The notes under the pieces: model-generated | Database searches by the model: none | Told to the model about the DNA's origin: nothing | The model's input: the letters and a program-made list of their open reading frames with translations, nothing else | Shown: piece by piece, positions 14,278 through 63,387 of the stretch | Layout: each line of letters starts with the position of its first letter | Position numbering within the stretch: the first letter of the stretch is position 1 | Source: Nemertoderma westbladi | Lineage: Eukaryota; Animalia; Xenacoelomorpha | Length of the DNA stretch: 64,000 nt | Direction of reading: 5' to 3' | NCBI GenBank assembly: GCA_032718475.1 | Contig: JAUCBJ010007243.1 | Location: forward strand, 88,079 to 152,078 | Translations under genes and position numbers: made by a program

Positions 14278-14563
14278 AACCTGGGTCTGGATTGCAGTAG
14301 GGACATGCTACGGGCTACATGGTGCGAGGCGTTCGTGCTGGGACTAGCTCAGTTCGCCCACACAATGTCACTAGCTACCATGCTCACCGCAATAATGAAC
14401 CATCTACAGGCCAGTCTGCAGCAGGGTCGTCTCACAGCCGATCGTGTCCGTCATGTGATGGACCACATCTGGAAACTACAGGAGTTTGTGTCGGCAGTCC
14501 TCAGACTCAATGTTTCTGATAGAGAGTACGCCTATCTACGGGCCATTGTATTGTTCAGTCCAG
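14278..14563 (+). CDS. NR2C2: NR2C-like receptor exon 7 (LBD, ends ...EYAYLRAIVLFSP); gene continues beyond the window
   Basis: NLGLDCSRDMLRATWCEAFVLGLAQ...VMDHIWKLQEF...EYAYLRAIVLFSP aligns with TR4 (VMEHIWKLQEF...EYAYLKAIVLFSPD). Acceptor ttgttctag, phase-1 donor CCAG|GTATGT at 14563/14564. The expected DHP.../AF-2 exon was not found in 63388-64000. Confidence 0.95.
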
Positions 14564-17500
14564 GTATGTTGTATTGTTCAATCCAGGTATGTTGTATTGG
14601 ACAGTCCAGGTATGTTGTATTGTTCAGTCCAGGTATGTTGTATTGTTCAGTCCAGGTATGTTGTATTGTTCAGTCCAGGTATGTTATATTGTTCAGGCCA
14701 GGTATGTTGTATTGTTCAGTCCAGGTATGTTGTATTGTTCAGTCCAGGTATGTTGTATTGTTCAGTCCAGGTATGTTCTATTGGACAGTCCAGGTATGTT
14801 CTATTGGACAGTCCAGGTATGTTGTATTGGACAATCCAGGTATGTTATATTGGACAGTCCAGGTATGTTATATTGGACAGTCCAGGTATGTTCTATTGGA
14901 CAGTCCAGGTATGTTCTATTGGACAGTCCAGGTATGTTGTATTGGACAGTCCAGGTATGTTGTATTGTTCAGTCCAGGTATGTCCTATTGGACAGTCCAG
15001 GTATGTTCTATTGGACAGTCCAAGTATGTTGTATTGTTCAGTCCAGGTATGTTGTATTGTTCAGTCCAGGTATGTTGTATTGTTCAGTCCAGGTATGTTC
15101 TATTGGACAGTCCAGGTATGTTCTATTGGACAGTCCAGGTATGTTGTATTGGACAATCCAGGTATGTTATATTGGACAGTCCAGGTATGTTATATTGGAC
15201 AGTCCAGGTATGTTCTATTGGACAGTCCAGGTATGTTCTATTGGACAGTCCAGGTATGTTCTATTGGACAGTCCAGGTATGTTGTATTGTTCAGTCCAGG
15301 TATGTTGTATTGTTCAGTCCAGGTATGTTCTATTGGACAGTCCAGGTATGTTCTATTGGACAGTCCAGGTATGTTGTATTGTTCAGTCCAGGTATGTTCT
15401 ATTGGACAGTCCAGGTATGTTGTATTGTTCAGTCCAGGTATGTTCTATTGGACAGTCCAGGTATGTTGTATTGGACAGTCCAGGTATGTTGTATTGTTCA
15501 GTCCAGGTATGTCCTATTGGACAGTCCAGGTATGTTCTATTGGACAGTCCAAGTATGTTGTATTGGACAGTCCAGGTATGTTCTATTGGACAGTCCAGGT
15601 ATGTTGTATTGTTCAGTCCAGGTATGTTGTATTGTTCAGTCCAGGTATGTTGTATTGTTCAGTCCAGGTATGTTCTATTGGACAGTCCAGGTATGTTCTA
15701 TTGGACAGTCCAGGTATGTTGTATTGTTCAGTCCAGGTATGTTGTATTGTTCAGTCCAGGTATGTTGTATTGTTCAGTCCAGGTATGTTCTATTGGACAG
15801 TCCAGGTATGTTCTATTGGACAGTCCAGGTATGTTGTATTGTTCAGTCCAGGTATGTTGTATTGGACAATCCAGGTATGTTCTATTGGACAGTCCAGGTA
15901 TGTTCTATTGGACAGTCCAGGTATGTCCTATTGGACAGTCCAGGTATGTTCTATTGGACAGTCCAGGTATGTTCTATTGGACAGTCCAGGTATGTCCTAT
16001 TGGACAGTCCAGGTATGTTCTATTGGACAGTCCAGGTATGTTCTATTGGACAGTCCAGGTATGTTGTATTGGACAGTCCAGGTATGTTCTATTGGACAGT
16101 CCAGGTATGTTCTATTGGACAGTCCAGGTATGTCCTATTGGACAGTCCAGGTATGTTCTATTGGACAGTCCAGGTATGTTGTATTGTTCAGTCCAGGTAT
16201 GTTCTATTGGACAATCCAGGTATGTTCTATTGGACAGTCCAGGTATGTTCTATTGGACAGTCCAGGTATGTCCTATTGGACAGTCCAGGTATGTTCTATT
16301 GGACAGTCCAGGTATGTTCTATTGGACAGTCCAGGTATGTCCTATTGGACAGTCCAGGTATGTTCTATTGGACAGTCCAGGTATGTTCTATTGGACAGTC
16401 CAGGTATGTTGTATTGGACAGTCCAGGTATGTTCTATTGGACAGTCCAGGTATGTTCTATTGGACAGTCCAGGTATGTCCTATTGGACAGTCCAGGTATG
16501 TTCTATTGGACAGTCCAGGTATGTTGTATTGTTCAGTCCAGGTATGTTCTATTGGACAGTCCAGGTATGTTCTATTGGACAGTCCAGGTATGTTATATTG
16601 GACAGTCCAGGTATGTTCTATTGTTCAGTCCAGGTATGTTGTATTGGACAGTCCAGGTATGTCCTATTGGACAGTCCAGGTATGTTCTATTGGACAGTCC
16701 AGGTATGTTCTATTGGACAGTCCAGGTATGTTCTATTGGACAGTCCAGGTATGTTCTATTGGACAGTCCAGGTATGTTGTATTGGACAGTCCAGGTATGT
16801 TCTATTGGACAGTCCAGGTATGTTCTATTGGACAGTCCAGGTATGTTGTATTGTTCAGTCCAGGTATGTTGTATTGTTCAGTCCAGGTATGTTGTATTGG
16901 ACAATCCAGGTATGTTCTATTGGACAGTCCAAGTATGTTGTATTGTTCAGGCCAGGTATGTTCTATTGGACAGTCCAGGTATGTTCTATTGGACAGTCCA
17001 GGTATGTTGTATTGGACAGTCCAGGTATGTCCTATTGGACAGTCCAGGTATGTTCTATTGGACAGTCCAGGTATGTTCTATTGGACAGTCCAGGTATGTT
17101 CTATTGGACAGTCCAGGTATGTTCTATTGGACAGTCCAGGTATGTTCTATTGGACAGTCCAAGTATGTTGTATTGTTCAGGCCAGGTATGTTCTATTGGA
17201 CAGTCCAGGTATGTTCTATTGGACAGTCCAGGTATGTTGTATTGGACAGTCCAGGTATGTCCTATTGGACAGTCCAGGTATGTTGTATTGTTCAGTCCAG
17301 GTATGTTCTATTGGACAGTCCAGGTATGTTCTATTGGACAGTCCAGGTATGTTGTATTGGACAGTCCAGGTATGTTCTATTGGACAGTCCAGGTATGTTC
17401 TATTGGACAGTCCAGGTATGTTCTATTGGACAGTCCAGGTATGTTCTATTGGACAGTCCAGGTATGTTGTATTGGACAGTCCAGGTATGTTCTATTGGAC

Positions 17501-20500
17501 AGTCCAGGTATGTTCTATTGGACAGTCCAGGTATGTTCTATTGGACAGTCCAGGTATGTTGTATTGTTCAGTCCAGGTATGTTCTATTGGACAGTCCAGG
17601 TATGTTCTATTGGACAGTCCAGGTATGTTGTATTGGACAGTCCAGGTATGTTCTATTGGACAGTCCAGGTATGTTCTATTGGACAGTCCAGGTATGTTGT
17701 ATTGGACAGTCCAGGTATGTTGTATTGGACAGTCCAGGTATGTTCTATTGGACAGTCCAGGTATGTTCTATTGGACAGTCCAGGTATGTTCTATTGGACA
17801 GTCCAGGTATGTTGTATTGGACAGTCCAGGTATGTTCTATTGGACAGTCCAGGTATGTTCTATTGGACAGTCCAGGTATGTTCTATTGGACAGTCCAGGT
17901 ATGTTGTATTGGACAGTCCAGGTATGTTGTATTGGACAGTCCAGGTATGTTGTATTGGACAGTCCAGGTATGTTCTATTGGACAGTCCAGGTATGTTCTA
18001 TTGGACAGTCCAGGTATGTTCTATTGGACAGTCCAGGTATGTTGTATTGGACAGTCCAGGTATGTTGTATTGGACAGTCCAGGTATGTTCTATTGTTCAG
18101 TCCAGGTATGTTCTATTGGACAGTCCAGGTATGTTATATTGGACAGTCCAGGTATGTTTTATTGGACAGTCCAGGTATGTTCTATTGGACAGTCCAGGTA
18201 TGTCCTATTGGACAGTCCAGGTATGTTCTATTGGACAGTCCAGGTATGTTCTATTGGACAGTCCAGGTATGTTGTATTGGACAGTCCAGGTATGTTGTAT
18301 TGGACAGTCCAGGTATGTCCTATTGGACAGTCCAGGTATGTCCTATTGGACAGTCCAGGTATGTCCTATTGGACAGTCCAGGTATGTTCTATTGGACAGT
18401 CCAGGTATGTTCTATTGGACAGTCCAGGTATGTTCTATTGGACAGTCCAGGTATGTTGTATTGGACAGTCCAGGTATGTCCTATTGGACAGTCCAGGTAT
18501 GTTCTATTGGACAGTCCAGGTATGTTCTATTGGACAGTCCAGGTATGTTGTATTGGACAGTCCAGGTATGTTGTATTGGACAGTCCAGGTATGTCCTATT
18601 GGACAGTCCAGGTATGTTCTATTGGACAGTCCAGGTATGTTGTATTGGACAGTCTAGGTATGTCCTATTGGACAGTCCAGGTATGTTCTATTGGACAGTC
18701 CAGGTATGTTCTATTGGACAGTCCAGGTATGTTGTATTGGACAGTCCAGGTATGTCCTATTGGACAGTCCAGGTATGTTCTATTGGACAGTCCAGGTATG
18801 TTCTATTGGACAGTCCAGGTATGTTGTATTGGACAGTCCAGGTATGTTGTATTGGACAGTCCAGGTATGTCCTATTGGACAGTCCAGGTATGTTCTATTG
18901 GACAGTCCAGGTATGTTCTATTGGACAGTCCAGGTATGTTCTATTGTTCAGTCCAGGTATGTCCTATTGGACAGTCCAGGTATGTTGTATTGGACAATCC
19001 AGGTATGTTCTATTGGACAGTCCAAGTATGTTGTATTGTTCAGGCCAGGTATGTTCTATTGGACAGTCCAGGTATGTTCTATTGGACAGTCCAGGTATGT
19101 TGTATTGGACAGTCCAGGTATGTCCTATTGGACAGTCCAGGTATGTTCTATTGGACAGTCCAGGTATGTTCTATTGGACAGTCCAGGTATGTTCTATTGG
19201 ACAGTCCAGGTATGTTCTATTGGACAGTCCAGGTATGTTGTATTGGACAGTCCAGGTATGTTCTATTGGACAGTCCAGGTATGTTCTATTGGACAGTCCA
19301 GGTATGTTGTATTGTTCAGTCCAGGTATGTTGTATTGGACAATCCAGGTATGTTCTATTGTTCAGTCCAGGTATGTTCTATTGGACAGTCCAGGTATGTT
19401 ATATTGGACAGTCCAGGTATGTTTTATTGGACAGTCCAGGTATGTCCTATTGGACAGTCCAGGTATGTTCTATTGGACAGTCCAGGTATGTTCTATTGGA
19501 CAGTCCAGGTATGTTCTATTGGACAGTCCAGGTATGTTGTATTGGACAGTCCAGGTATGTTGTATTGGACAGTCCAGGTATGTCCTATTGGACAGTCCAG
19601 GTATGTTCTATTGGACAGTCCAGGTATGTTCTATTGGACAGTCCAGGTATGTTCTATTGTTCAGTCCAGGTATGTCCTATTGGACAGTCCAGGTATGTTG
19701 TATTGGACAATCCAGGTATGTTCTATTGGACAGTCCAAGTATGTTGTATTGTTCAGGCCAGGTATGTTCTATTGGACAGTCCAGGTATGTTCTATTGGAC
19801 AGTCCAGGTATGTTGTATTGGACAGTCCAGGTATGTCCTATTGGACAGTCCAGGTATGTTCTATTGGACAGTCCAGGTATGTTCTATTGGACAGTCCAGG
19901 TATGTTCTATTGGACAGTCCAGGTATGTTCTATTGGACAGTCCAGGTATGTTGTATTGGACAGTCCAGGTATGTTCTATTGGACAGTCCAGGTATGTTCT
20001 ATTGGACAGTCCAGGTATGTTGTATTGTTCAGTCCAGGTATGTTGTATTGGACAATCCAGGTATGTTCTATTGTTCAGTCCAGGTATGTTCTATTGGACA
20101 GTCCAGGTATGTTATATTGGACAGTCCAGGTATGTTTTATTGGACAGTCCAGGTATGTTCTATTGGACAGTCCAGGTATGTCCTATTGGACAGTCCAGGT
20201 ATGTTCTATTGGACAGTCCAGGTATGTTCTATTGGACAGTCCAGGTATGTTGTATTGGACAGTCCAGGTATGTTGTATTGGACAGTCCAGGTATGTCCTA
20301 TTGGACAGTCCAGGTATGTCCTATTGGACAGTCCAGGTATGTCCTATTGGACAGTCCAGGTATGTTCTATTGGACAGTCCAGGTATGTTCTATTGGACAG
20401 TCCAGGTATGTTCTATTGGACAGTCCAGGTATGTTGTATTGGACAGTCCAGGTATGTCCTATTGGACAGTCCAGGTATGTTCTATTGGACAGTCCAGGTA

Positions 20501-23500
20501 TGTTCTATTGGACAGTCCAGGTATGTTGTATTGGACAGTCCAGGTATGTTGTATTGGACAGTCCAGGTATGTCCTATTGGACAGTCCAGGTATGTACTAT
20601 TGGACAGTCCAGGTATGTTGTATTGGACAGTCCAGGTATGTCCTATTGGACAGTCCAGGTATGTTCTATTGGACAGTCCAGGTATGTTCTATTGGACAGT
20701 CCAGGTATGTTGTATTGGACAGTCCAGGTATGTCCTATTGGACAGTCCAGGTATGTTCTATTGGACAGTCCAGGTATGTTCTATTGGACAGTCCAGGTAT
20801 GTTGTATTGGACAGTCCAGGTATGTTGTATTGGACAGTCCAGGTATGTCCTATTGGACAGTCCAGGTATGTTCTATTGGACAGTCCAGGTATGTTCTATT
20901 GGACAGTCCAGGTATGTTCTATTGTTCAGTCCAGGTATGTCCTATTGGACAGTCCAGGTATGTTGTATTGGACAATCCAGGTATGTTCTATTGGACAGTC
21001 CAAGTATGTTGTATTGTTCAGGCCAGGTATGTTCTATTGGACAGTCCAGGTATGTTCTATTGGACAGTCCAGGTATGTTGTATTGGACAGTCCAGGTATG
21101 TCCTATTGGACAGTCCAGGTATGTTCTATTGGACAGTCCAGGTATGTTCTATTGGACAGTCCAGGTATGTTCTATTGGACAGTCCAGGTATGTTCTATTG
21201 GACAGTCCAGGTATGTTGTATTGGACAGTCCAGGTATGTTCTATTGGACAGTCCAGGTATGTTCTATTGGACAGTCCAGGTATGTTGTATTGGACAGTCC
21301 AGGTATGTTGTATTGGACAGTCCAGGTATGTTCTATTGGACAGTCCAGGTAGGTTGTATTGTTCAGTCCAGGTATGTTGTATTGGACAATCCAGGTATGT
21401 TCTATTGGACAGTCCAAGTATGTTGTATTGTTCAGGCCAGGTATGTTCTATTGGACAGTCCAGGTATGTTCTATTGGACAGTCCAGGTATGTTGTATTGG
21501 ACAGTCCAGGTATGTCCTATTGGACAGTCCAGGTATGTTCTATTGGACAGTCCAGGTATGTTCTATTGGACAGTCCAGGTATGTTGTATTGTTCAGTCCA
21601 GGTATGTCCTATTGGACAGTCCAGGTATGTTGTATTGGACATCCAGGTATGTTCTATTGGACAGTCCAAGTATGTTGTATTGTTCAGGCCAGGTATGTTC
21701 TATTGGACAGTCCAGGTATGTTCTATTGGACAGTCCAGGTATGTTGTATTGGACAGTCCAGGTATGTCCTATTGGACAGTCCAGGTATGTTCTATTGGAC
21801 AGTCCAGGTATGTTCTATTGGACAGTCCAGGTATGTTCTATTGGACAGTCCAGGTATGTTGTATTGGACAGTCCAGGTATGTTCTATTGGACAGTCCAGG
21901 TATGTTCTATTGGACAGTCCAGGTATGTTGTATTGGACAGTCCAGGTATGTTCTATTGGACAGTCCAGGTATGTTCTATTGGACAGTCCAGGTATGTTGT
22001 ATTGGACAGTCCAGGTATGTCCTATTGGACAGTCCAGGTATGTTCTATTGGACAGTCCAGGTATGTTCTATTGGACAGTCCAGGTATGTTGTATTGGACA
22101 GTCCAGGTATGTTGTATTGGACAGTCCAGGTATGTCCTATTGGACAGTCCAGGTATGTTCTATTGGACAGTCCAGGTATGTTCTATTGGACAGTCCAGGT
22201 ATGTTGTATTGTTCAGTCCAGGTATGTCCTATTGGACAGTCCAGGTATGTTGTATTGGACAGTCCAGGTATGTTCTATTGGACAGTCCAAGTATGTTGTA
22301 TTGTTCAGGCCAGGTATGTTCTATTGGACAGTCCAGGTATGTTCTATTGGACAGTCCAGGTATGTTGTATTGGACAGTCCAGGTATGTCCTATTGGACAG
22401 TCCAGGTATGTTCTATTGGACAGTCCAGGTATGTTGTATTGGACAGTCCAGGTATGTCCTATTGGACAGTCCAGGTATGTTCTATTGGACAGTCCAGGTA
22501 TGTTCTATTGGACAGTCCAGGTATGTTGTATTGGACAGTCCAGGTATGTTCTATTGGACAGTCCAGGTATGTTCTATTGGACAGTCCAGGTATGTTGTAT
22601 TGGACAGTCCAGGTATGTTCTATTGGACAGTCCAGGTATGTTCTATTGGACAGTCCAGGTATGTTGTATTGTTCAGTCCAGGTATGTTGTATTGGACAAT
22701 CCAGGTATGTTCTATTGGACAGTCCAGGTATGTTCTATTGGACAGTCCAGGTATGTTCTATTGGACAGTCCAGGTATGTTCTATTGGACAGTCCAGGTAT
22801 GTTCTATTGGACAGTCCAGGTATGTTCTATTGGACAGTCCAGGTATGTTGTATTGGACAGTCCAGGTATGTCCTATTGGACAGTCCAGGTATGTTCTATT
22901 GGACAGTCCAGGTATGTTCTATTGGACAGTCCAGGTATGTTCTATTGGACAGTCCAGGTATGTTCTATTGGACAGTCCAGGTATGTTCTATTGGACAGTC
23001 CAGGTATGTTGTATTGTTCAGGCCAGGTATGTTCTATTGGACAGTCCAGGTATGTTCTATTGGACAGTCCAGGTATGTTGTATTGGACAGTCCAGGTATG
23101 TCCTATTGGACAGTCCAGGTATGTTCTATTGGACAGTCCAGGTATGTTCTATTGGACAGTCCAGGTATGTTCTATTGGACAGTCCAGGTATGTTGTATTG
23201 GACAGTCCAGGTATGTTGTATTGTTCAGTCCAGGTATGTTGTATTGGACAGTCCAGGTATGTTCTATTGGACAGTCCAGGTATGTTCTATTGGACAGTCC
23301 AGGTATGTTCTATTGGACAGTCCAGGTATGTTCTATTGGACAGTCCAGGTATGTTCTATTGGACAGTCCAGGTATGTTGTATTGTTCAGTCCAGGTATGT
23401 TGTATTGTTCAGTCCAGGTATGTTCTATTGGACAGTCCAGGTATGTTCTATTGGACAGTCCAGGTATGTTGTATTGGACAGTCCAGGTATGTCCTATTGG

Positions 23501-26500
23501 ACAGTCCAGGTATGTTCTATTGGACAGTCCAGGTATGTTGTATTGTTCAGTCCAGGTATGTTCTATTGGACAGTCCAGGTATGTTGTATTGTACAGTCCA
23601 GGTATGTTGTATTGGTCAGTCCAGGTATGTTGTATTGTTCAGTCCAGGTATGTTCTATTGGACAGTCCAGGTATGTCCTATTGGACAGTCCAGGTATGTT
23701 CTATTGGACAGTCCAAGTATGTTGTATTGTTCAGTCCAGGTATGTTCTATTGGACAGTCCAGGTATGTTCTATTGGACAGTCCAGGTATGTTCTATTGGA
23801 CAGTCCAGGTATGTTGTATTGGACAGTCCAGGTATGTCCTATTGGACAGTCCAGGTATGTTCTATTGGACAGTCCAAGTATGTTGTATTGTTCAGTCCAG
23901 GTATGTTCTATTGGACAGTCCAGGTATGTTGTATTGTTCAGTCCAGGTATGTTGTATTGGACAGTCCAGGTATGTCCTATTGGACAGTCCAGGTATGTTC
24001 TATTGGACAGTCCAGGTATGTTGTATTGTTCAGTCCAGGTATGTTCTATTGGACAGTCCAGGTATGTTCTATTAGACAGTCCAGGTATGTTGTATTGTTC
24101 AGTCCAGGTATGTTCTATTGGACAGTCCAGGTATGTTGTATTGTTCAGTCCAGGTATGTTGTATTGGACAGTCCAGGTATGTCCTATTGGACAGTCCAGG
24201 TATGTTCTATTGGACAGTCCAAGTATGTTGTATTGTTCAGTCCAGGTATGTTCTATTGGACAGTCCAGGTATGTTCTATTGGACAGTCCAGGTATGTTGT
24301 ATTGTTCAGTCCAGGTATGTTGTATTGTTCAGTCCAGGTATGTTCTATTGGACAGTCCAGGTATGTTCTATTGGACAGTCCAGGTATGTTGTATTGGACA
24401 GTCCAGGTATGTTGTATTGTTCAGTCCAGGTATGTTCTATTGGACAGTCCAGGTATGTTGTATTGGACAGTCCAGGTATGTTCTATTGGACAGTCCAGGT
24501 ATGTTGTATTGGACAGTCCAGGTATGTTGTATTGTTCAGTCCAGGTATGTTCTATTGGACAGTCCAGGTATGTTGTATTGGACAGTCCAGGTATGTTCTA
24601 TTGGACAGTCCAGGTATGTTCTATTGGACAGTCCAGGTATGTTGTATTGGACAGTCCAGGTATGTTGTATTGTTCAGTCCAGGTATGTTCTATTGGACAG
24701 TCCAGGTATGTTGTATTGGACAGTCCAGGTATGTTGTATTGGACAGTCCAGGTATGTTGTATTGGACAGTCCAGGTATGTTCTATTGGACAGTCCAGTCA
24801 GGTATGTCTATTGGACAGTCCAGGTATGTTGTATTGGACAGTCCAGGTAGGTTGTATTGTTCAGTCCAGGTATGTTGTATTGTTCAGTCCAGGTATGTTC
24901 TATTGGACAGTCCAGGTATGTTGTATTGGACAGTCCAGGTATGTCCTATTGGACAGTCCAGGTATGTTCTATTGGACAGTCCAGGTATGTTGTATTGGAC
25001 AGTCCAGGTATGTTCTATTGGACAGTCCAGGTATGTTGTATTGTTCAGTCCAGGTATGTTCTATTGGACAGTCCAGGTATGTTGTATTGGACAGTCCAGG
25101 TATGTTCTATTGGACAGTCCAGTTCAGGTATGTCCTATTGGACAGTCCAGGTATGTTGTATTGGACAGTCCAGGTAGGTTGTATTGTTCAGTCCAGGTAT
25201 GTTGTATTGTTCAGTCCAGGTATGTTCTATTGGACAGTCCAGGTATGTTGTATTGGACAGTCCAGGTATGTCCTATTGGACAGTCCAGGTATGTTCTATT
25301 GGACAGTCCAGGTATGTTGTATTGGACAGTCCAGGTATGTTCTATTGGACAGTCCAGGTATGTTGTATTGGACAGTCCAGGTATGTTGTATTGTTCAGTC
25401 CAGGTATGTTCTATTGGACAGTCCAGGTATGTTCTATTGGACAGTCCAGGTATGTTGTATTGGACAGTCCAGGTATGTTCTATTGGACAGTCCAGGTATG
25501 TTGTATTGGACAGTCCAGGTATGTTCTATTGGACAGTCCAGGTATGTTCTATTGGACAGTCCAGGTATGTTCTATTGGACAGTCCAGGTATGTTGTATTG
25601 GACAGTCCAGGTATGTTCTATTGGACAGTCCAGTTCAGGTATGTCCTATTGGACAGTCCAGGTATGTTGTATTGTTCAGTCCAGGTATGTTCTATTGTTC
25701 AGTCCAGGTATGTTCTATTGGACAGTCCAGGTATGTTCTATTGGACAGTCCAGGTATGTTATATTGTTCAGTCCAGGTATGTTCTATTGGACAGTCCAGG
25801 TATGTTGTATTGGACAGTCCAGGTATGTTCTATTGGACAGTCCAGTTCAGGTATGTCCTATTGGACAGTCCAGGTATGTTGTATTGGACAGTCCAGGTAG
25901 GTTGTATTGTTCAGTCCAGGTATGTTCTATTGGACAGTCCAGGTATGTTGTATTGGACAGTCCAGGTAGGTTGTATTGTTCAGTCCAGGTATGTTGTATT
26001 GGACAATCCAGGTATGTTCTATTGGACAGTCCAGGTATGTTGTATTGGACAGTCCAGGTAGGTTGTATTGTTCAGTCCAGGTATGTTGTATTGTTCAATC
26101 CAGGTATGTTCTATTGGACAGTCCAGGTAGGTTGTATTGTTCAGTCCAGGTATGTTGTATTGTTCAGTCCAGGTATGTTCTATTGGACAGTCCAGGTATG
26201 TTGTATTGGACAGTCCAGGTATGTTCTATTGGACAGTCCAGGTATGTTGTATTGGACAGTCCAGGTATGTCCTATTGGACAGTCCAGGTATGTTGTATTG
26301 GACAGTCCAGGTATGTCCTATTGGACAGTCCAGGTATGTTGTATTGTTCAGTCCAGGTATGTTCTATTGGACAGTCCAAGTATGTTGTATTGTTCAGTCC
26401 AGGTATGTTGTATTGGACAGTCCAGGTATGTCCTATTGGACAGTCCAGGTATGTTCTATTGGACAGTCCAGGTATGTTCTATTGTTCAGTCCAGGTATGT

Positions 26501-29500
26501 TCTATTGGACAGTCCAGGTATGTTGTATTGGACAGTCCAAGTATGTTGTATTGTTCAGTCCAGGTATGTTGTATTGGACAGTCCAGGTATGTCCTATTGG
26601 ACAGTCCAGGTATGTTCTATTGGACAGTCCAGGTATGTTCTATTGTTCAGTCCAGGTATGTTCTATTGTTCAGTCCAGGTATGTTGTATTGGACAGTCCA
26701 GGTATGTCCTATTGGACAGTCCAGGTATGTCCTATTGGACAGTCCAGGTATGTTATATTGGACAGTCCAGGTATGTTGTATTGTTCAATCCAGGTATGTT
26801 GTATTGGACAGTCCAGGTATGTTCTATTGGACAGTCCAGGTATGTTATATTGGACAGTCCAGGTATGTTCTATTGGACAGTCCAGGTATGTTGTATTGTT
26901 CAGTCCAGGTATGTTGTATTGTTCAGTCCAGGTATGTTGTATTGGACAGTCCAGGTATGTTGTATTGTTCAATCCAGGTATGTTCTATTGGACAGTCCAG
27001 GTATGTTGTATTGGACAGTCCAGGTATGTTGTATTGTTCAGTCCAGGTATGTTATATTGGACAGTCCAGGTATGTTGTATTGGACAGTCCAGGTATGTTG
27101 TATTGTTCAGTCCAGGTATGTTCTATTGGACAGTCCAGGTATGTTGTATTGGACAGTCCAGGTATGTTCTATTGGACAGTCCAGGTATGTTCTATTGGAC
27201 AGTCCAGGTATGTTATATTGGACAGTCCAGGTATGTTCTATTGGACAGTCCAGGTATGTTATATTGGACAGTCCAGGTATGTTCTATTGGACAGTCCAGG
27301 TATGTTGTATTGTTCAGTCCAGGTATGTTGTATTGTTCAGTCCAGGTATGTTGTATTGTTCAGTCCAGGTATGTTGTATTGTTCAGTCCAGGTATGTTCT
27401 ATTGGACAGTCCAGGTATGTTCTATTGGACAGTCCAGGTATGTTATATTGGACAGTCCAGGTATGTTCTATTGGACAGTCCAGGTATGTTGTATTGTTCA
27501 GTCCAGGTATGTTGTATTGTTCAGTCCAGGTATGTTCTATTGGACAGTCCAGGTATGTTGTATTGGACAATCCAGGTATGTTGTATTGGACAGTCCAGGT
27601 ATGTTCTATTGGACAGTCCAGGTATGTTGTATTGTTCAGTCCAGGTATGTTGTATTGGACAGTCCAGGTAGGTTGTATTGTTCAGTCCAGGTATGTTGTA
27701 TTGTTCAATCCAGGTATGTTCTATTGGACAGTCCAGGTATGTTGTATTGGACAGTCCAGGTATGTTGTATTGGACAGTCCAGGTATGTTCTATTGGACAG
27801 TCCAGGTATGTTATATTGTTCAGTCCAGGTATGTTGTATTGGACAGTCCAGGTATGTTGTATTGGACAGTCCAGGTATGTTGTATTGGACAGTCCAGGTA
27901 TGTTGTATTGGACAGTCCAGGTATGTTCTATTGGACAGTCCAGGTATGTTGTATTGTTCAGTCCAGGTATGTTCTATTGGACAGTCCAGGTATGTTATAT
28001 TGTTCAGTCCAGGTATGTTGTATTGTTCAATCCAGGTATGTTCTATTGGACAGTCCAGGTATGTTGTATTGTTCAGTCCAGGTATGTTATATTGTTCAGT
28101 CCAGGTATGTTGTATTGTTCAATCCAGGTATGTTCTATTGGACAGTCCAGGTATGTTGTATTGTTCAGTCCAGGTATGTTATATTGTTCAGTCCAGGTAT
28201 GTTCTATTGGACAGTCCAGGTATGTTGTATTGGACAGTCCAGGTATGTTGTATTGGACAGTCCAGGTATGTTGTATTGGACAGTCCAGGTATGTTCTATT
28301 GGACAGTCCAGGTATGTTGTATTGTTCAGTCCAGGTATGTTATATTGTTCAGTCCAGGTATGTTGTATTGTTCAATCCAGGTATGTTCTATTGGACAGTC
28401 CAGGTATGTTGTATTGTTCAGTCCAGGTATGTTGTATTGTTCAATCCAGGTATGTTCTATTGGACAGTCCAGGTATGTTGTATTGTTCAGTCCAGGTATG
28501 TTGTATTGGACAGTCCAGGTATGTTGTATTGTTCAGTCCAGGTATGTTGTATTGTTCAGTCCAGGTATGTTCTATTGGACAGTCCAGGTATGTTGTATTG
28601 TTCAGTCCAGGTATGTTGTATTGGACAGTCCAGGTATGTTGTATTGTTCAGTCCAGGTATGTTGTATTGTTCAGTCCAGGTATGTTGTATTGTTCAATCC
28701 AGGTATGTTCTATTGGACAGTCCAGGTATGTTCTATTGGACAGTCCAGGTATGTTGTATTGGACAGTCCAGGTATGTTGTATTGTTCAGTCCAGGTATGT
28801 TCTATTGGACAGTCCAGGTATGTTGTATTGGACAGTCCATGTATGTTGTATTGTTCAATCCAGGTATGTTCTATTGGACAGTCCAGGTATGTTGTATTGT
28901 TCAGTCCAGGTATGTTCTATTGGACAGTCCAGGTATGTTGTATTGGACAGTCCATGTATGTTGTATTGTTCAGTCCAGGTATGTTCTATTGGACAGTCCA
29001 GGTATGTTGTATTGGACAGTCCAGGTATGTTCTATTGGACAGTCCAGGTATGTTCTATTGGACAGTCCAGGTATGTTGTATTGTTCAGTCCAGGTATGTT
29101 CTATTGGACAGTCCAGGTATGTTCTATTGGACAGTCCAGGTATGTTCTATTGGACAGTCCAGGTAGGTTGTATTGGACAGTCCAGGTATGTTATATTGTT
29201 CAGTCCAGGTATGTTGTATTGTTCAGTCCAGGTATGTTGTATTGTTCAGTCCAGGTATGTTCTATTGGACAGTCCAGGTATGTTGTATTGGACAGTCCAT
29301 GTATGTTGTATTGTTCAGTCCAGGTATGTTCTATTGGACAGTCCAGGTATGTTGTATTGTTCAGTCCAGGTATGTTCTATTGGACAGTCCAGGTATGTTG
29401 TATTGTTCAATCCAGGTATGTTCTATTGGACAGTCCAGGTATGTTGTATTGTTCAGTCCAGGTATGTTCTATTGGACAGTCCAGGTATGTTGTATTGTTC

Positions 29501-53500: not shown

Positions 53501-56500
53501 GTTGTATTGTTCAGTCCAGGTATGTTCTATTGGACAGTCCAGGTAGGTTGTATTGTTCAGTCCAGGTATGTTGTATTGGACAATCCAGGTATGTTCTATT
53601 GGACAGTCCAGGTATGTTGTATTGGACAATCCAGGTATGTTGTATTGTTCAGTCCAGGTATGTTCTATTGGACAGTCCAGGTATGTTGTATTGGACAATC
53701 CAGGTATGTTCTATTGGACAGTCCAGGTATGTTTTATTGGACAGTCCAGGTATGTTGTATTGGACAGTCCAGGTATGTTTTATTTATTGGACAGTCCAGG
53801 TATGTTGTATTGTTCAGTCCAGGTATGTTGTATTGTTCAGTCCATGTATGTTGTATTGGACAATCCAGGTATGTTCTATTGGACAGTCCAGGTATGTTGT
53901 ATTGGACAATCCAGGTATGTTCTATTGGACAGTCCAGGTATGTTCTATTGGACAGTCCAGGTATGTTGTATTGGACAGTCCAGGTATGTTGTATTGGACA
54001 ATCCAGGTATGTTCTATTGGACAGTCCAGGTATCTTGTATTGGACAGTCCAGGTATGTTATATTGTTCAGTCCAGGTATGTTGTATTGGACAGTCCAGGT
54101 AGGTTGTATTGTTCAGTCCAGGTATGTTGTATTGGACAATCCGGGTATATTCTATTGGACAGTCCAGGTAGGTAGGTTGTATTGTTCAGTCCAGGTATGT
54201 TGTATTGGACAATCCAGGTAGGTTGTATTGGACAGTCCAGGTATGTTGTATTGGACAGTCCAGGTATGTTGTATTGTTCAGTCCATGTATGTTGTATTGG
54301 ACAGCCCAGGTATGTTGTATTGGACAGTCCAGGTAGGTTGTATTGTTCAGTCCAGGTATGTTGTATTTTTCAGTCCAGGTATGTTGTATTGGACATCCCA
54401 GGTATGTTATATTGTTCAGTCCATGTATGTTGTATTGGACAGTCCAGGTAGGTTGTATTGTTCAGTCCAGGTATGTTGTATTGTTCAGTCCAGGTATGTT
54501 GTATTGGACAGTCCAGGTATGTTGTATTGTTCAGTCCATGTATGTTGTATTGGACAGCCCAGGTATGTTGTATTGGACAGTCCAGGTAGGTTGTATTGTT
54601 CAGTCCAGGTATGTTGTATTGTTCAGTCCAGGTATGTTGTATTGTTCAGTCCAGGTATGTTGTATTGTTCAGTCCAGGTATGTTGTATTGGACAGTCCAG
54701 GTATGTTGTATTGTTCAGTCCATGTATGTTGTATTGGACAGCCCAGGTATGTTGTATTGGACAGTCCAGGTAGGTTGTATTGTTCAGTCCAGGTATGTTG
54801 TATTTTTCAGTCCAGGTATGTTGTATTGGACATCCCAGGTATGTTATATTGTTCAGTCCATGTATGTTGTATTGGACAGTCCAGGTATGTTGTATTGGAC
54901 AATCCAGGTATGTTCTATTGGACAGTCCAGGTAGGTTGTATTGTTCAGTCCAGGTATGTTGTATTGTTCAATCCAGGTATGTTCTATTGGACAGTCCAGG
55001 TAGGTTGTATTGTTCAGTCCAGGTATGTTGTATTGGACAATCCAGGTATGTTCTATTGGACAGTCCAGGTAGGTTGTATTGTTCAGTCCAGGTATGTTAT
55101 ATTGGACAGTCCAGGTAGGTTGTATTGTTCAGTCCAGGTATGTTATATTGGACAGTCCAGGTAGGTTGTATTGTTCAGTCCAGGTATGTTGTATTGGACA
55201 ATCCAGGTATGTTCTATTGGACAGTCCAGGTAGGTTGTATTGTTCAGTCCAGGTATGTTATATTGGACAGTCCAGGTATGTTGTATTGTTCAGTCCAGGT
55301 ATGTTGTATTGGACAATCCAGGTATGTTCTATTGGACAGTCCAGGTAGGTTGTATTGGACAATCCAGGTATGTTCTATTGGACAGTCCAGGTAGGTTGTA
55401 TTGTTCAGTCCAGGTATGTTGTATTGGACAATCCAGGTATGTTCTATTGGACAGTCCAGGTAGGTTGTATTGTTCAGTCCAGGTATGTTATATTGGACAG
55501 TCCAGGTAGGTTGTATTGTTCAGTCCAGGTATGTTGTATTGGACAATCCAGGTATGTTCTATTGGACAGTCCAGGTAGGTTGTATTGTTCAGTCCAGGTA
55601 TGTTATATTGGACAGTCCAGGTAGGTTGTATTGTTCAGTCCAGGTATGTTATATTGGACAGTCCAGGTAGGTTGTATTGTTCAGTCCAGGTATGTTGTAT
55701 TGGACAATCCAGGTATGTTCTATTGGACAGTCCAGGTATGTTGTATTGGACAATCCAGGTATGTTCTATTGGACAGTCCAGGTAGGTTGTATTGTTCAGT
55801 CCAGGTATGTTGTATTGGACAATCCAGGTATGTTCTATTGGACAGTCCAGGTAGGTTGTATTGTTCAGTCCAGGTATGTTATATTGGACAGTCCAGGTAG
55901 GTTGTATTGTTCAGTCCAGGTATGTTGTATTGGACAATCCAGGTATGTTCTATTGGACAGTCCAGGTAGGTTGTATTGTTCAGTCCAGGTATGTTATATT
56001 GGACAGTCCAGGTATGTTGTATTGTTCAGTCCAGGTATGTTGTATTGGACAATCCAGGTATGTTCTATTGGACAGTCCAGGTAGGTTGTATTGTTCAGTC
56101 CAGGTATGTTCTATTGGACAGTCCAGGTAGGTTGTATTGTTCAGTCCAGGTATGTTATATTGGACAGTCCAGGTATGTTGTATTGTTCAGTCCAGGTATG
56201 TTATATTGGACAGTCCAGGTATGTTGTATTGTTCAGTCCAGGTATGTTGTATTGGACAATCCAGGTATGTTCTATTGGACAGTCCAGGTAGGTTGTATTG
56301 TTCAGTCCAGGTATGTTGTATTGTTCAGTCCAGGTATGTTGTATTGTTCAATCCAGGTATGTTATATTGGACAGTCCAGGTATGTTGTATTGTTCAGTCC
56401 AGGTATGTTCTATTGGACAGTCCAGGTAGGTTGTATTGTTCAGTCCAGGTATGTTCTATTGGACAGTCCAGGTATGTTATATTGGACAATCCAGGTATGT

Positions 56501-59500
56501 TCTATTGGACAGTCCAGGTAGGTTGTATTGTTCAGTCCAGGTATGTTATATTGGACAGTCCAGGTATGTTGTATTGTTCAGTCCAGGTATGTTATATTGG
56601 ACAGTCCAGGTAGGTTGTATTGTTCAGTCCAGGTATGTTGTATTGGACAATCCAGGTATGTTCTATTGGACAGTCCAGGTAGGTTGTATTGTTCAGTCCA
56701 GGTATGTTATATTGGACAGTCCAGGTATGTTGTATTGTTCAGTCCAGGTATGTTGTATTGGACAATCCAGGTATGTTCTATTGGACAGTCCAGGTAGGTT
56801 GTATTGTTCAGTCCAGGTATGTTCTATTGGACAGTCCAGGTAGGTTGTATTGTTCAGTCCAGGTATGTTATATTGGACAGTCCAGGTATGTTGTATTGTT
56901 CAGTCCAGGTATGTTATATTGGACAGTCCAGGTATGTTGTATTGTTCAGTCCAGGTATGTTGTATTGGACAATCCAGGTATGTTCTATTGGACAGTCCAG
57001 GTAGGTTGTATTGTTCAGTCCAGGTATGTTGTATTGTTCAGTCCAGGTATGTTGTATTGTTCAATCCAGGTATGTTATATTGGACAGTCCAGGTATGTTG
57101 TATTGTTCAGTCCAGGTATGTTCTATTGGACAGTCCAGGTAGGTTGTATTGTTCAGTCCAGGTATGTTCTATTGGACAGTCCAGGTATGTTATATTGGAC
57201 AATCCAGGTATGTTCTATTGGACAGTCCAGGTAGGTTGTATTGTTCAGTCCAGGTATGTTATATTGGACAGTCCAGGTATGTTGTATTGTTCAGTCCAGG
57301 TATGTTATATTGGACAGTCCAGGTAGGTTGTATTGTTCAGTCCAGGTATGTTATATTGGACAGTCCAGGTATGTTGTATTGTTCAGTCCAGGTATGTTAT
57401 ATTGGACAGTCCAGGTATGTTGTATTGTTCAGTCCAGGTATGTTGTATTGGACAGTCCAGGTATGTTGTATTGGACAATCCAGGTATGTTCTATTGGACA
57501 GTCCAGGTAGGTTGTATTGTTCAGTCCAGGTATGTTATATTGGACAGTCCAGGTATGTTGTATTGTTCAGTCCAGGTATGTTATATTGGACAGTCCAGGT
57601 AGGTTGTATTGTTCAGTCCAGGTATGTTATATTGGACAGTCCAGGTATGTTGTATTGTTCAGTCCAGGTATGTTATATTGGACAGTCCAGGTATGTTGTA
57701 TTGTTCAGTCCAGGTATGTTGTATTGGACAGTCCAGGTATGTTGTATTGGACAATCCAGGTATGTTCTATTGGACAGTCCAGGTAGGTTGTATTGTTCAG
57801 TCCAGGTATGTTATATTGTTCAGTCCAGGTATGTTGTATTGGACAGTCCAGGTATGTTGTATTGGACAATCCAGGTATGTTCTATTGGACAGTCCAGGTA
57901 GGTTGTATTGTTCAGTCCAGGTATGTTATATTGTTCAGTCCAGGTATGTTGTATTGGACAATCCAGGTATGTTCTATTGGACAGTCCAGGTAGGTTGTAT
58001 TGTTCAGTCCAGGTATGTTATATTGGACAGTCCAGGTATGTTGTATTGTTCAGTCCAGGTATGTTATATTGGACAGTCCAGGTAGGTTGTATTGTTCAGT
58101 CCAGGTATGTTATATTGGACAGTCCAGGTATGTTGTATTGTTCAGTCCAGGTATGTTATATTGGACAGTCCAGGTAGGTTGTATTGTTCAGTCCAGGTAT
58201 GTTATATTGGACAGTCCAGGTATGTTGTATTGTTCAGTCCAGGTATGTTATATTGGACAGTCCAGGTATGTTGTATTGTTCAGTCCAGGTATGTTGTATT
58301 GGACAGTCCAGGTATGTTGTATTGGACAATCCAGGTATGTTCTATTGGACAGTCCAGGTAGGTTGTATTGTTCAGTCCAGGTATGTTATATTGTTCAGTC
58401 CAGGTATGTTGTATTGGACAGTCCAGGTATGTTGTATTGGACAATCCAGGTATGTTCTATTGGACAGTCCAGGTAGGTTGTATTGTTCAGTCCAGGTATG
58501 TTATATTGTTCAGTCCAGGTATGTTGTATTGGACAATCCAGGTATGTTCTATTGGACAGTCCAGGTAGGTTGTATTGTTCAGTCCAGGTATGTTATATTG
58601 GACAGTCCAGGTATGTTGTATTGTTCAGTCCAGGTATGTTATATTGGACAGTCCAGGTATGTTGTATTGTTCAATCCAGGTATGTTCTATTGGACAGTCC
58701 AGGTATGTTGTATTGGACAGTCCAGGTATGTTGTATTGTTCAGTCCAGGTATGTTGTATTGGACAGTCCAGGTATGTTGTATTGGACAGTCCAGGTATGT
58801 TGTATTGTTCAGTCCAGGTATGTTCTATTGGACAGTCCAGGTATGTTCTATTGGACAGTCCAGGTATGTTGTATTGTTCAGTCCAGGTATGTTGTATTGT
58901 TCAATCCAGGTAGGTTGTATTGTTCAGTCCAGGTATGTTGTATTGGACAGTCCAGGTATGTTGTATTGTTCAGTCCAGGTATGTTGTATTGTTCAGTCCA
59001 GGTATGTTCTATTGGACAGTCCAGGTATGTTCTATTGGACAGTCCAGGTATGTTGTATTGTTCAATCCAGGTAGGTTGTATTGTTCAGTCCAGGTATGTT
59101 GTATTGTTCAGTCCAGGTATGTTGTATTGGACAGTCCAGGTATGTTGTATTGTTCAGTCCAGGTATGTTGTATTGTTCAGTCCAGGTATGTTCTATTGGA
59201 CAGTCCAGGTATGTTCTATTGGACAGTCCAGGTATGTTGTATTGTTCAATCCAGGTAGGTTGTATTGTTCAGTCCAGGTATGTTGTATTGGACAGTCCAG
59301 GTATGTTGTATTGTTCAGTCCAGGTATGTTGTATTGTTCAGTCCAGGTATGTTCTATTGGACAGTCCAGGTATGTTCTATTGGACAGTCCAGGTATGTTG
59401 TATTGTTCAATCCAGGTAGGTTGTATTGTTCAGTCCAGGTATGTTGTATTGTTCAGTCCAGGTATGTTGTATTGGACAGTCCAGGTATGTTGTATTGTTC

Positions 59501-62500
59501 AGTCCAGGTATGTTGTATTGTTCAGTCCAGGTATGTTCTATTGGACAGTCCAGGTATGTTCTATTGGACAGTCCAGGTATGTTGTATTGGACAGTCCAGG
59601 TATGTTGTATTGTTCAATCCAGGTAGGTTGTATTGTTCAGTCCAGGTATGTTGTATTGTTCAGTCCAGGTATGTTCTATTGGACAGTCCAGGTATGTTCT
59701 ATTGGACAGTCCAGGTATGTTGTATTGGACAGTCCAGGTATGTTGTATTGTTCAATCCAGGTAGGTTGTATTGTTCAGTCCAGGTATGTTGTATTGGACA
59801 GTCCAGGTATGTTGTATTGTTCAGTCCAGGTATGTTGTATTGTTCAGTCCAGGTATGTTGTATTGTTCAGTCCAGGTATGTTGTATTGTTCAGTCCAGGT
59901 ATGTTGTATTGGACAGTCCAGGTATGTTGTATTGGACAGTCCAGGTATGTTCTATTGGACAGTCCAGGTATGTTCTATTGGACAGTCCAGGTATGTTCTA
60001 TTGGACAGTCCAGGTATGTTCTATTGGACAGTCCAGGTATGTTCTATTGTTCAGTCCAGGTATGTTGTATTGTTCAGTCCAGGTATGTTGTATTGTTCAG
60101 TCCAGGTATGTTGTATTGTTCAGTCCAGGTATGTTGTATTGGACAGTCCAGGTATGTTGTATTGGACAGTCCAGGTATGTTCTATTGGACAGTCCAGGTA
60201 TGTTCTATTGGACAGTCCAGGTATGTTCTATTGGACAGTCCAGGTATGTTCTATTGGACAGTCCAGGTATGTTCTATTGGACAGTCCAGGTATGTTGTAT
60301 TGTTCAGTCCAGGTAGGTTGTATTGTTCAGTCCAGGTATGTTCTATTGGACAGTCCAGGTAGGTTGTATTGTTCAGTCCAGGTATGTTATATTGGACAAT
60401 CCAGGTATGTTCTATTGGACAGTCCAGGTATGTTGTATTGTTCAGTCCAGGTATGTTGTATTGGACAATCCAGGTATGTTCTATTGGACAGTCCAGGTAG
60501 GTTGTATTGTTCAGTCCAGGTCTGTTCTATTGGACAGTCCAGGTATGTTCTATTGGACAGTCCAGGTCTGTTCTATTGGACAGTCCAGGTATGTTCTATT
60601 GGACAGTCCAGGTATGTTCTATTGGACAATCCAGGTATGTTCTATTGGACAGTCCAGGTATGTTGTATTGTTCAGTCCAGGTATGTTATATTGGACAGTC
60701 CAGGTATGTTGTATTGTTCAGTCCAGGTATGTTGTATTGTTCAGTCCAGGTATGTTGTATTGTTCAGTCCAGGTATGTTGTATTGGACAGTCCAGGTATG
60801 TTGTATTGTTCAGTCCAGGTATGTTGTATTGTTCAGTCCAGGTATGTTGTATTGTTCAGTCCAGGTATGTTGTATTGTTCAGTCCAGGTATGTTGTATTG
60901 GACAGTCCAGGTATGTTGTATTGGACAGTCCAGGTATGTTCTATTGGACAGTCCAGGTATGTTCTATTGGACAGTCCAGGTATGTTCTATTGGACAGTCC
61001 AGGTATGTTCTATTGGACAGTCCAGGTATGTTCTATTGGACAGTCCAGGTATGTTGTATTGGACAATCCAGGTATGTTCTATTGGACAGTCCAGGTATGT
61101 TCTATTGGACAGTCCAGGTATGTTGTATTGGACAGTCCAGGTATGTTGTATTGGACAGTCCAGGTATGTTGTATTGTTCAGTCCAGGTCTGTTCTATTGG
61201 ACAGTCCAGGTATGTTGTATTGTTCAGTCCAGGTATGTTGTATTGGACAATCCAGGTATGTTGTATTGTTCAGTCCAGGTATGTTGTATTGTTCAGTCCA
61301 GGTATGTTGTATTGTTCAGTCCAGGTATGTTGTATTGTTCAGTCCAGGTATGTTATATTGGACAGTCCAGGTATGTTGTATTGTTCAGTCCGGGTATGTT
61401 GTATTGTTCAGTCCAGGTATGTTGTATTGGACAATCCAGGTATGTTCTATTGGACAGTCCAGGTATGTTATATTGTTCAGTCCAGGTATGTTCTATTGGA
61501 CAGTCCAGGTATGTTGTATTGTTCAGTCCAGGTATGTTGTATTGTTCAGTCCAGGTATGTTGTATTGTTCAGTCCAGGTATGTTGTATTGGACAATCCAG
61601 GTATGTTCTATTGGACAGTCCAGGTATGTTATATTGTTCAGTCCAGGTATGTTCTATTGGACAGTCCAGGTATGTTCTATTAGACAGTCCAGGTATGTTC
61701 TATTGGACAATCCAAGTATGTTGTATTGTTCAGTCCAGGTATGTTGTATTGGACAGTCCAGGTAGGTTGTATTGGACAGTCCAGGTATGTTGTATTGTTC
61801 AGTCCAGGTATGTTGTATTGTTCAGTCCAGGTATGTTATATTGTTCAGTCCAGGTATGTTGTATTGGACAATCCAGGTATATTCTATTGTTCAGTCCAGG
61901 TATGTTGTATTGGACAGTCCAGGTATGTTGTATTGTTCAGTCCAGGTATGTTATATTGTTCAGTCCAGGTATGTTCTATTGGACAGTCCAGGTATGTTGT
62001 ATTGTTCAGTCCAGGTATGTTGTATTGGACAATCCAGGTATGTTCTATTGGACAGTCCAGGTATGTTATATTGTTCAGTCCAGGTATGTTCTATTGGACA
62101 GTCCAGGTATGTTCTATTAGACAGTCCAGGTATGTTCTATTGGACAATCCAAGTATGTTGTATTGTTCAGTCCAGGTATGTTGTATTGGACAGTCCAGGT
62201 AGGTTGTATTGGACAGTCCAGGTATGTTGTATTGTTCAGTCCAGGTATGTTGTATTGTTCAGTCCAGGTATGTTGTATTGGACAATCCAGGTATATTCTA
62301 TTGTTCAGTCCAGGTATGTTGTATTGGACAGTCCAGGTATGTTGTATTGTTCAGTCCAGGTATGTAGTATTGTTCAGTCCAGGTATGTTGTATTGTTCAG
62401 TCCAGGTATGTTGTATTGGACAATCCAGGTATGTTCTATTGGACAGTCCAGGTATGTTATATTAGACAGTCCAGGTATGTTCTATTGGACAGTCCAGGTA

Positions 62501-63387
62501 TGTTCTATTGTTCAGTCCAGGTATGTTCTATTGGACAATCCAAGTATGTTGTATTGTTCAGTCCAGGTATGTTGTATTGGACAGTCCAGGTAGGTTGTAT
62601 TGGACAGTCCAGGTATGTTGTATTGTTCAGTCCAGGTATGTTGTATTGTTCAGTCCAGGTATGTTGTATTGGACAATCCAGGTATGTTCTATTGGACAGT
62701 CCAGGTATGTTCTATTGGACAGTCCAGGTATGTTCTATTAGACAGTCCAGGTATGTTCTATTGGACAATCCAAGTATGTTGTATTGTTCAGTCCAGGTAT
62801 GTTGTATTGGACAGTCCAGGTAGGTTGTATTGGACAGTCCAGGTATGTTGTATTGTTCAGTCCAGGTATGTTGTATTGTTCAGTCCAGGTATGTTGTATT
62901 GGACAATCCAGGTATATTCTATTGTTCAGTCCAGGTATGTTGTATTGGACAGTCCAGGTATGTTGTATTGTTCAGTCCAGGTATGTAGTATTGTTCAGTC
63001 CATGTATGTTGTATTGGACAGCCCAGGTATGTTGTATTGGACAGTCCAGGTAGGTTGTATTGTTCAGTCCAGGTATGTTGTATTTTTCAGTCCAGGTATG
63101 TTGTATTGTTCAGTCCAGGTATGTTGTATTTTTCAGTCCAGGTATGTTGTATTGTTCAGTCCAGGTATGTTGTATTTTTCAGTCCAGGTATGTTGTATTG
63201 GACAGTCCAGGTATGTTGTATTGTTCAGTCCAGGTATGTTGTATTTTTCAGTCCAGGTAGGTTGTATTGTTCAGTCCAGGTATGTTGTATTTTTCAGTCC
63301 AGGTATGTTGTATTGTACATCCCAGGTATGTTGTATTGTTCAGTCCAGGTGTGTTGTTGTCTAGGACAGCCCCGGTATGTTAGTATT
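14546..63387 (+). repeat. ~48.8 kb intronic satellite, ~2,120 copies of a 23-bp unit TT(G/C)TATTG(TT/GA)CAGTCCAGGTATG derived from the exon 7/intron 7 junction
   Basis: Uninterrupted 23-nt periodicity with very few indels. The first unit (14546-14568) overlaps the last 18 coding nt and the first 5 intron nt. The array degenerates at 63300-63387. Confidence 0.98.

Follow-up and report, generated by a model that had tools for sequence, protein, structure and literature searches.

A 49-kb array of splice-donor junction copies in an NR2C nuclear receptor gene of Nemertoderma westbladi: probable birth by slippage, and splicing at the first donor in one RNA assembly

Introduction

How can an intron that presents about two thousand near-consensus copies of its own 5' splice site be removed from the right one, how did such an intron arise, and are the copies kept for a purpose? 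These questions are raised by a stretch of 64,000 nucleotides (nt) of Nemertoderma westbladi DNA (contig JAUCBJ010007243.1 of assembly GCA_032718475.1, positions 88,079 to 152,078 of the forward strand), hereafter called the window, where the junction between exon 7 and intron 7 of an NR2C nuclear receptor gene opens a 49-kb tandem array of copies of that junction. The array had been described in an earlier reading made from the letters only (the sequence-only reading), and the present analysis follows up that reading. It is noted that contigs from four of six listed public sequencing runs, X1 to X4, were used, and that only positions 10200-14620 of the window were compared with the runs, with exons 1 and 2 outside this coverage.

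The answer at which we arrive, and which we consider probable, is that the array is a 49-kb NR2C exon-7/intron-7 junction array in an expressed gene that is spliced at the first donor in one RNA assembly, that it was born by slippage and shaped by ordinary repeat turnover, and that it is tolerated rather than functional.

Structure of the array

Tandem Repeats Finder (TRF) gives positions 14546-63387 (plus strand) as a single array of 48.8 kb with a period of 23 and 2121.2 copies. Parsing unit by unit gave 2,122 units; the phase shifts eight times, by -1 to +5 nt, and nothing foreign is inserted in 14546-63387. This agrees with the about 2,120 sense-oriented copies over 49 kb that had been reported before. 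The features concerned are as follows.

14546..63387, plus strand: 23-nt donor-junction satellite of about 2,122 units; the variants form regional domains, and blocks of several units are duplicated locally
14546..14568, plus strand: founder unit, made of the last 18 nt of exon 7 (14546-14563) and the first 5 nt of intron 7 (14564-14568)
63388..64000, plus strand: non-repeat remainder of intron 7, with no exon 8 within the window

The unit thus begins in the coding exon, where it gives the codons for IVLFSP, and spans the donor with 18 exon and 5 intron nt, as the sequence-only reading had it. The units fall into 57 variants, the three commonest having 571, 464 and 324 copies. The 464 units match the true junction exactly over a 24-nt context, i.e., the 18 exon nt plus GTATGT, while the commonest unit (571 copies) differs from this exon-identical unit; the earlier statement that many of the donors are identical in context to the true one applies to the 464 units, the commonest unit not being among them. 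In 1,324 of the 2,105 clean units (17 were excluded, namely the units beside indels and the last three), the exon-derived part carries the change TT>GA, with both letters always changing together. The exact string CAG/GTATGT, where the slash marks the exon/intron cut, is present 1,876 times in the array and CAG/GT 2,013 times. Sites with GT and at least 8 of 9 letters of the donor consensus (the consensus used for the scoring is also given in PMC1557585) number 1,988 in the array versus 1 in positions 1-14545, giving 81 near-consensus donors per 2 kb of array.

The unit variants cluster by region, in domains, and the string of units repeats exactly over at most 34 units, or 782 nt. The 48.8 kb of the array holds four CG dinucleotides, and no GATC, GANTC, TTAA or CTNAG site was found in it.

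Two side observations concern the unit. Firstly, with the TT>GA variant unit positions 7-18 contain an inverted repeat of 5 bp, perfect and centred on one base (1,198 copies), and an additional G>A at donor position -1 extends it to 6 bp (24 copies), a change that is not seen on the TT background; such inverted-repeat-forming variants may have arisen by template-switch mutation. Secondly, stop codons are few in the array: the frame of exon 7 stays open to 18655, 4.1 kb into the array, and open runs reach up to 4,374 codons. The array is thus an annotation trap, where gene callers may invent repeat proteins.

Host gene and age of intron 7

The exons upstream of the array, all on the plus strand, are as follows.

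2679..2778, plus strand: NR2C exon 1, predicted from the ATG to a phase-1 donor, on the basis of an open frame and GT
3662..3886, plus strand: NR2C exon 2, predicted; an alternative acceptor 15 nt downstream would fit too
8394..8762, plus strand: NR2C exon 3, C4 zinc-finger DNA-binding domain (PF00105, E 4.6e-32; best solved match NR2C2, E 1.9e-35)
10269..10564, plus strand: NR2C exon 4 (X4 joint 10561>13550, GT..AG at cut +3; first donor used)
13553..13628, plus strand: NR2C exon 5 (joints in run X4)
13876..14024, plus strand: NR2C exon 6, in which the ligand-binding domain starts (joints in run X4; tblastn)
14278..14563, plus strand: NR2C exon 7, part of the ligand-binding domain (PF00104; TR4 structure 3P0U; authentic donor between 14563 and 14564)

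Joined, the seven exons from 2679 to 14563 give an open frame of 500 codons, in line with the earlier claim that the exons are intact, and the last letters of exon 3 are found in run X4 as a loose end that precedes 10268. Among solved structures both domains are closest to NR2C2 (E 1.9e-35 versus 4.1e-30 for COUP-TF in the one, and 2.8e-32 versus 1.1e-09 in the other). Judged by its sequence, the host gene is an intact NR2C (TR2/TR4) nuclear receptor gene.

Exon 7 ends with A-I-V-L-F-S-P plus the first base of an Asp codon. Compared with human TR4 (3P0U) it gives E 2.8e-32, with IVLFSP identical. A protein search found 603 relatives; among the 120 of them that were listed none exceeds 63% identity over exon 7, the best named ones are from a sea cucumber and vertebrates, and 118 of the 120, which are mostly redundant vertebrate NR2C2 isoforms, contain IVLFSP. 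Conservation of AIVLFSP in NR2C proteins had been stated in the sequence-only reading, and for IVLFSP it is borne out by these relatives. When metagenome contigs were scanned with exon 7, there were 192 pattern matches, none of which was a relative.

It is also noted that in 14 of the listed 120 the reading FSP-G is followed by divergence or by the end of the sequence, and that FSP closes one incomplete model. Because of these breaks and this model end, vertebrates likely have a phase-1 intron at the same place, and intron 7 is then likely to be older than the array. A tblastn comparison with four relatives found no match past exon 7 in the window, and with no exon 8 there intron 7 is therefore at least 49,437 nt long, with the array making up 98.8% of its visible part.

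Origin from the junction

The 18 exon letters of the unit encode the conserved IVLFSP, and on this ground the array appears to have grown out of the junction. The chance that random DNA would fit these codons together with the GT is about 3e-9, and the unit has no match closer than 7 of 23 mismatches elsewhere in the window. Moreover, the exon-type TT at unit positions 9-10 is present in 9 of the first 10 and in 10 of the last 12 full units, versus 37% overall, a pattern that an ancestral exon form with turnover of the interior would produce. These sequence features support the view, already taken in the sequence-only reading, that the array was born from the exon-7/intron-7 junction and was not inserted beside it.

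Concerning the pathway, we propose that a slipped 23-nt duplication across the junction would have copied 18 exon and 5 intron nt, with the slip possibly seeded by the letters right after the array, which resemble the first letters of the unit. Unequal exchange or slippage would then have amplified blocks of units, giving the regional domains, while the ends would have stayed exon-like.

Reality and length of the array

By contrast, it could be proposed that a pre-existing satellite family landed at the junction, or that the array is an artefact of the assembly. The reads check the array at its near junction and not over its full length, which leaves some room for this proposal. If it were true, however, a unit that encodes a conserved peptide in frame would not be expected, and the regional domains with a longest exact repeat of 34 units are unlike the product of a looped assembly. 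The DNA runs bear on the proposal more directly. In X1 and X2, contigs that start at 13363 lead from unique sequence into the first unit, ending at 14574-14575, and they match the window throughout, with 0 other letters. For X1, the contig depth is 25.3 and the summed depth in the last bin is 103,164, giving a ratio of 4,078; for X2 the values are 18, 43,467 and 2,415, respectively. Such a summed word depth is no copy number as such, and it was calibrated by the sum simulated from error-free unitigs of the array, which gives ratios of 3,700-5,100 for 2,122 units, 2,400-3,300 for 1,500, 1,300-1,900 for 1,000 and 80-130 for 100. X1 thus fits about 1,800-2,300 units and X2 about 1,200-1,500, within a factor of about two, where either of the two runs may be the source of the window. 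Since these depths are about what one locus supplies, an assembly artefact and a satellite at many loci are both unlikely, and we regard the proposal as a whole as highly improbable. Two of the outcomes that the sequence-only reading had named as refuting it, an artefactual array and the same unit forming arrays at many unrelated loci, thus find little room here, the depth fitting one array.

Run X3 gives a different picture, with a depth ratio of 168, which would be equivalent to roughly 130-190 units. X3 is filed under the same sample as X1, its single-copy letters differ from the window by 1-2%, and relative to the transposon bins its array depth is about 80-fold lower. It might then be argued that the 49-kb array is a long allele, rare or harmful, that most animals have a short array and that the clean mRNA described below stems from a short allele. 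The low ratio and the divergent single-copy contigs of X3 speak for this, and so does human ABCA7, where expression falls and exon skipping rises with longer alleles of an intronic repeat (PMC5954066). On the other hand, two runs from two samples and two studies both indicate an order of at least 1,000 units, although one of them may be the window's source, and the exon pieces listed for the X4 contig are identical to the window, with 0 other letters. X3 itself may come from a biased library, and there are holes in its cover next to the array. As the array has none of the four restriction sites given above, a restriction-based library would lose it, and the drop in X3 is explicable in this way. 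The low depth of X3 may thus reflect either a short allele or library bias, and the long-allele explanation as a whole seems to us unlikely.

Expression and choice of the donor

None of the six listed runs is on record as RNA, and X4 is labelled 'DNA?'; we treat it as RNA because its contig skips three introns at GT..AG, with intron 6 uncovered. This contig of 611 nt, with a depth of 4,907, has the joints 10561>13550, 13627>13875 and 14022>14276, all GT..AG, connecting exons 4, 5, 6 and 7. Right after 14563 it departs from the window into 22 letters which, hand-read together with the last exon base, give D-H-P-G-L-S-N, and DHPG continues exon 7 in most of the listed relatives. The NR2C gene is thus expressed, exon 8 exists, and both junction arrays of the gene, i.e., that at exon 7 and the small one at exon 4 described below, are spliced at the first donor in X4. 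The first-donor selection that had been offered as one option in the sequence-only reading is what this contig displays, and the outcome of an unexpressed pseudogene with no downstream exon, which would have spoken against that reading, is not found. The other X4 contigs in the last bin sum to 3,674 depth-bases, which would be at most 1-2.4% of the main form if they represented one alternative join, and the array sequence is nearly absent from the X4 RNA contigs.

Two simple explanations of this choice were rejected. One is that decay of frameshifted RNA is the sole filter. Over the first 12 later donors tested, every third stays in frame and meets no stop, and therefore random use followed by decay would not yield the first-donor picture. 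The other is that the later donors are hidden by RNA structure; the fold of the first 276 nt of the array is no better than that of shuffled sequences (z 0.25).

We propose instead that exon 7 would be defined, as the RNA emerges, by its only real acceptor together with the first donor, and that the next acceptor would be made only tens of minutes after this definition. The later donors, 23 nt apart and with neither an upstream acceptor nor an exon of their own, would then remain silent, like those in the repeat of human F7. If a later donor were used on rare occasions, the frame would shift in two of three cases, with the RNA likely to be degraded.

Another pathway that leads to the same mRNA is stepwise removal, in which the first donor joins to the AG of a later unit, rebuilding a donor there. 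Recursive, or ratchet, splice sites have an AG/GT that rebuilds the donor and a strong pyrimidine tract without a nearby upstream AG, and they leave intermediate joins or a saw-tooth pattern of cover in nascent RNA. The first of these features is present here, since exon 7 and the units end with CAG followed by GT, and the stepwise product would be indistinguishable from that of first-donor splicing in the X4 contig. It can also be argued that very long satellite introns rely on splicing during transcription (PMC11207136). The strong acceptor, by contrast, is lacking in the two unit types considered. They have 11-12 pyrimidines in 18 nt, versus 11-16 in the six real acceptors of the gene, which makes them poor acceptors, and another AG lies 5 nt upstream in both types, whereas five of the six real acceptors have none within 15 nt. 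Use of this upstream AG would add a 5-nt piece, and such a piece is absent from the X4 contig. Stepwise removal is therefore, in our judgement, rather improbable.

Are the donors kept for a function?

The sequence-only reading had also suggested that the array serves as a loading array or sponge for the U1 small nuclear ribonucleoprotein (U1 snRNP), as a shield against premature polyadenylation or as a delay of transcription. The shield is rejected: the array contains 0 AATAAA and 0 ATTAAA, and thus no polyadenylation signal that would call for protection.

For U1 loading, a local condensate of splicing factors or a delay of the transcript, several points can be adduced. The density of near-consensus donors is high, with no strong fold to hide them; several U1 can bind one RNA (PMC3413131); and the RNA of chicken LL2R, for which another method predicts more than 5 donors per 2 kb, gathers spliceosomal small nuclear RNAs (bioRxiv 10.64898/2026.03.19.712899). 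As to the delay, reading through the array would add about 12-49 minutes at transcription rates of 4-1 kb per minute.

If the donors were kept by selection, they should be better conserved than the rest of the unit, but this is not what is seen. In the 2,105 clean units no donor-specific conservation was found: there are 8 distinct substitutions in the 9 donor positions versus 13 in the other 14 (p 0.56), and 6 of the 9 donor and 7 of the 14 non-donor positions are nearly invariant. Variants that weaken the donor have spread to 18-111 copies, among them those at positions -1 (103), +4 (111) and +5 (23), and the sister array at exon 4 has lost its donors. Moreover, the array is scarcely present in the RNA contigs, although the library type and the contig building could hide it. 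There is thus no sign of selection for the donors or for U1 binding, and no function or new mechanism is shown; binding of U1 to the array RNA is plausible as a side effect. That the array is retained for U1 loading, a condensate or a delay we hold to be very unlikely, and the sponge and loading array are not supported.

A bolder view combines several of these elements: the long allele would be expressed, its about 2,000 U1 sites would give a condensate or a ladder of recursive sites, the intron would be removed stepwise, and the array length would tune the timing or level of the receptor. This view, too, we think has little probability.

A second junction repeat, and other repeats near the gene

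A further indication comes from the donor of exon 4, which has a junction repeat of its own.

10551..10737, plus strand: small donor-junction repeat, 21-nt unit (14 exon and 7 intron nt), of which about 8 copies follow a 7-nt spacer (TRF 10575-10737)

Compared with the junction, the copies have 3-4 differences in 21 positions, while the best match elsewhere (1-14545, both strands) has 6, and 5 of the 7 full copies have AT instead of GT. Here the local peptide is too weakly conserved to fix the direction of origin from the sequence. Within 600 nt, junction copies are present at 2 of the 7 donors and at 0 of the 6 acceptors of the NR2C gene. As two donors of one gene have such repeats, the repeats point to a mutational tendency rather than to a device of a single intron.

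The other TRF arrays, at 1661-1799, 2161-2300, 3449-3517, 5876-6293 and 7270-7320, do not lie at splice sites; short tandem arrays at 3449-3517, 5876-6067, 6107-6293 and 7270-7320 are in introns 1 and 2. Elements bounded by inverted repeats, whose arms measure 64-425 nt or more, are present at 426-1143, 1656-2282, 4373-4990, 8827-9296 and 11527-12926, the last of which is multi-copy by depth; the five are likely to be non-autonomous DNA transposons. The translations of 10744-11286 (minus strand) and about 5180-5570 (plus strand) resemble what we take to be the C-terminal part of reverse transcriptases of long interspersed nuclear elements, and the summed depth of the fragment at 10744-11286 (minus strand) is near 2 million in the DNA runs.

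Weighing the evidence

Several points weigh against the reading of a tolerated array spliced at its first donor. The X4 sample differs from those of the DNA runs, and the X4 animal may have an array of another length, so that the product seen may not be that of the long allele. The evidence on splicing is one contig from one study, and contigs drop rare forms and do not resolve those under about 1-2%. In HeLa cells, when two strong donors are at least 45 nt apart, the downstream one is spliced (PMC3413131), and CBS and 6-16 (PMC1557585) as well as ABCA7 (PMC5954066) also use the next one or two copies. The GT is unchanged in all 2,105 clean units; seven non-donor positions are equally unchanged. 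The neutrality of the array, which we consider likely, has an absence of signal as its basis.

With regard to the HeLa data, the preference for the downstream donor sets in beyond about 30 nt (PMC3413131), and the neighbouring donors of the array, 23 nt apart, are below this onset. A precedent for the choice of the first donor is the F7 repeat (PMC1557585). The published rules for equal 5' splice sites are thus in conflict, the upstream site winning in the one (PMC1557585) and the downstream site, at distances of at least 45 nt, in the other (PMC3413131). The NR2C array, whose near-consensus donors number about 2,000 and include 464 in the exact 24-nt context, is an extreme test of these rules, and the single RNA assembly sides with the first donor.

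Comparison with known systems

The sequence-only reading knew of no intron built in this way at this scale. The architecture itself is known, however, and it is the size that exceeds the cases found. In amphioxus, 'mirage' minisatellites have been described in Adh3, the globins BflGb6 and BflGb9, troponin C and PGBD5 (PMC3087553, PMC3902484). As in the mirages, the unit of the NR2C array spans the exon/intron boundary and repeats the splice site while the mRNA is regular, homogenisation is local and spares the boundary units, and there is more than one case per gene or genome. The mirages have units of 10-160 bp and 3-6 copies (globin case), whereas the NR2C array has 2,122 copies over 48.8 kb with multi-unit blocks; it also sits in a different host, whose relatives, in the 120 listed of 603, stay at or below 63% identity over exon 7.

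In human genes, comparable repeats are the 37-bp variable number tandem repeat (VNTR) of F7 intron 7 and those of 6-16, CBS intron 13, LMNB2 and PDGF (PMC1557585). Like in F7, LMNB2 and PDGF, the first unit holds the true donor, identical pseudo-donors follow, and the most upstream one is used; in F7, the later donors have been shown to work once the first is mutated. The human repeats of this type have 5-26 copies, so that the NR2C array has 80-400 times more, and its unit includes 18 exon nt under protein constraint versus 4 in F7; 6-16 and CBS use two further sites, while none is seen for NR2C at the sensitivity of the contigs (PMC1557585 for the human side). The 25-bp VNTR in intron 18 of human ABCA7 is similar in unit size, starts at the donor, extends over kilobases and has a sequencing depth that tracks its length. 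Its largest allele, however, is 10,678 bp or about 427 units, its unit starts at the GT and not inside the exon, its second donor is used, and its long alleles raise exon skipping (PMC5954066).

Two other systems share single features. Chicken LL2R also is a tandem-repeat RNA with an excess of donors and few poly(A) signals. It is, however, non-coding, extends over about 160 kb, is built of long monomers, is not junction-born and has been shown to recruit splicing factors (bioRxiv 10.64898/2026.03.19.712899), whereas the NR2C array lies in the removed intron of a coding gene. The giant introns of Drosophila Y genes likewise consist almost entirely of tandem repeats within expressed genes, at megabase scale (PMC11207136, PMC6508621). 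By boundary-spanning unit, authentic first boundary, regular mRNA and tandem turnover, the NR2C array belongs to the mirage/F7 kind. The simple repeats of the Drosophila Y genes are not known to be copies of the genes' splice junctions.

No published junction repeat larger than about 427 units was found in a search mainly of the open-access literature, and a larger case may exist outside it. The unusual part is the size, with about fivefold more copies than in the largest case found in print; the inner structure is satellite-like. The comparison indicates that a junction repeat can grow from a minisatellite into a satellite inside a conserved gene that is expressed, and giant introns can arise by this route, among others.

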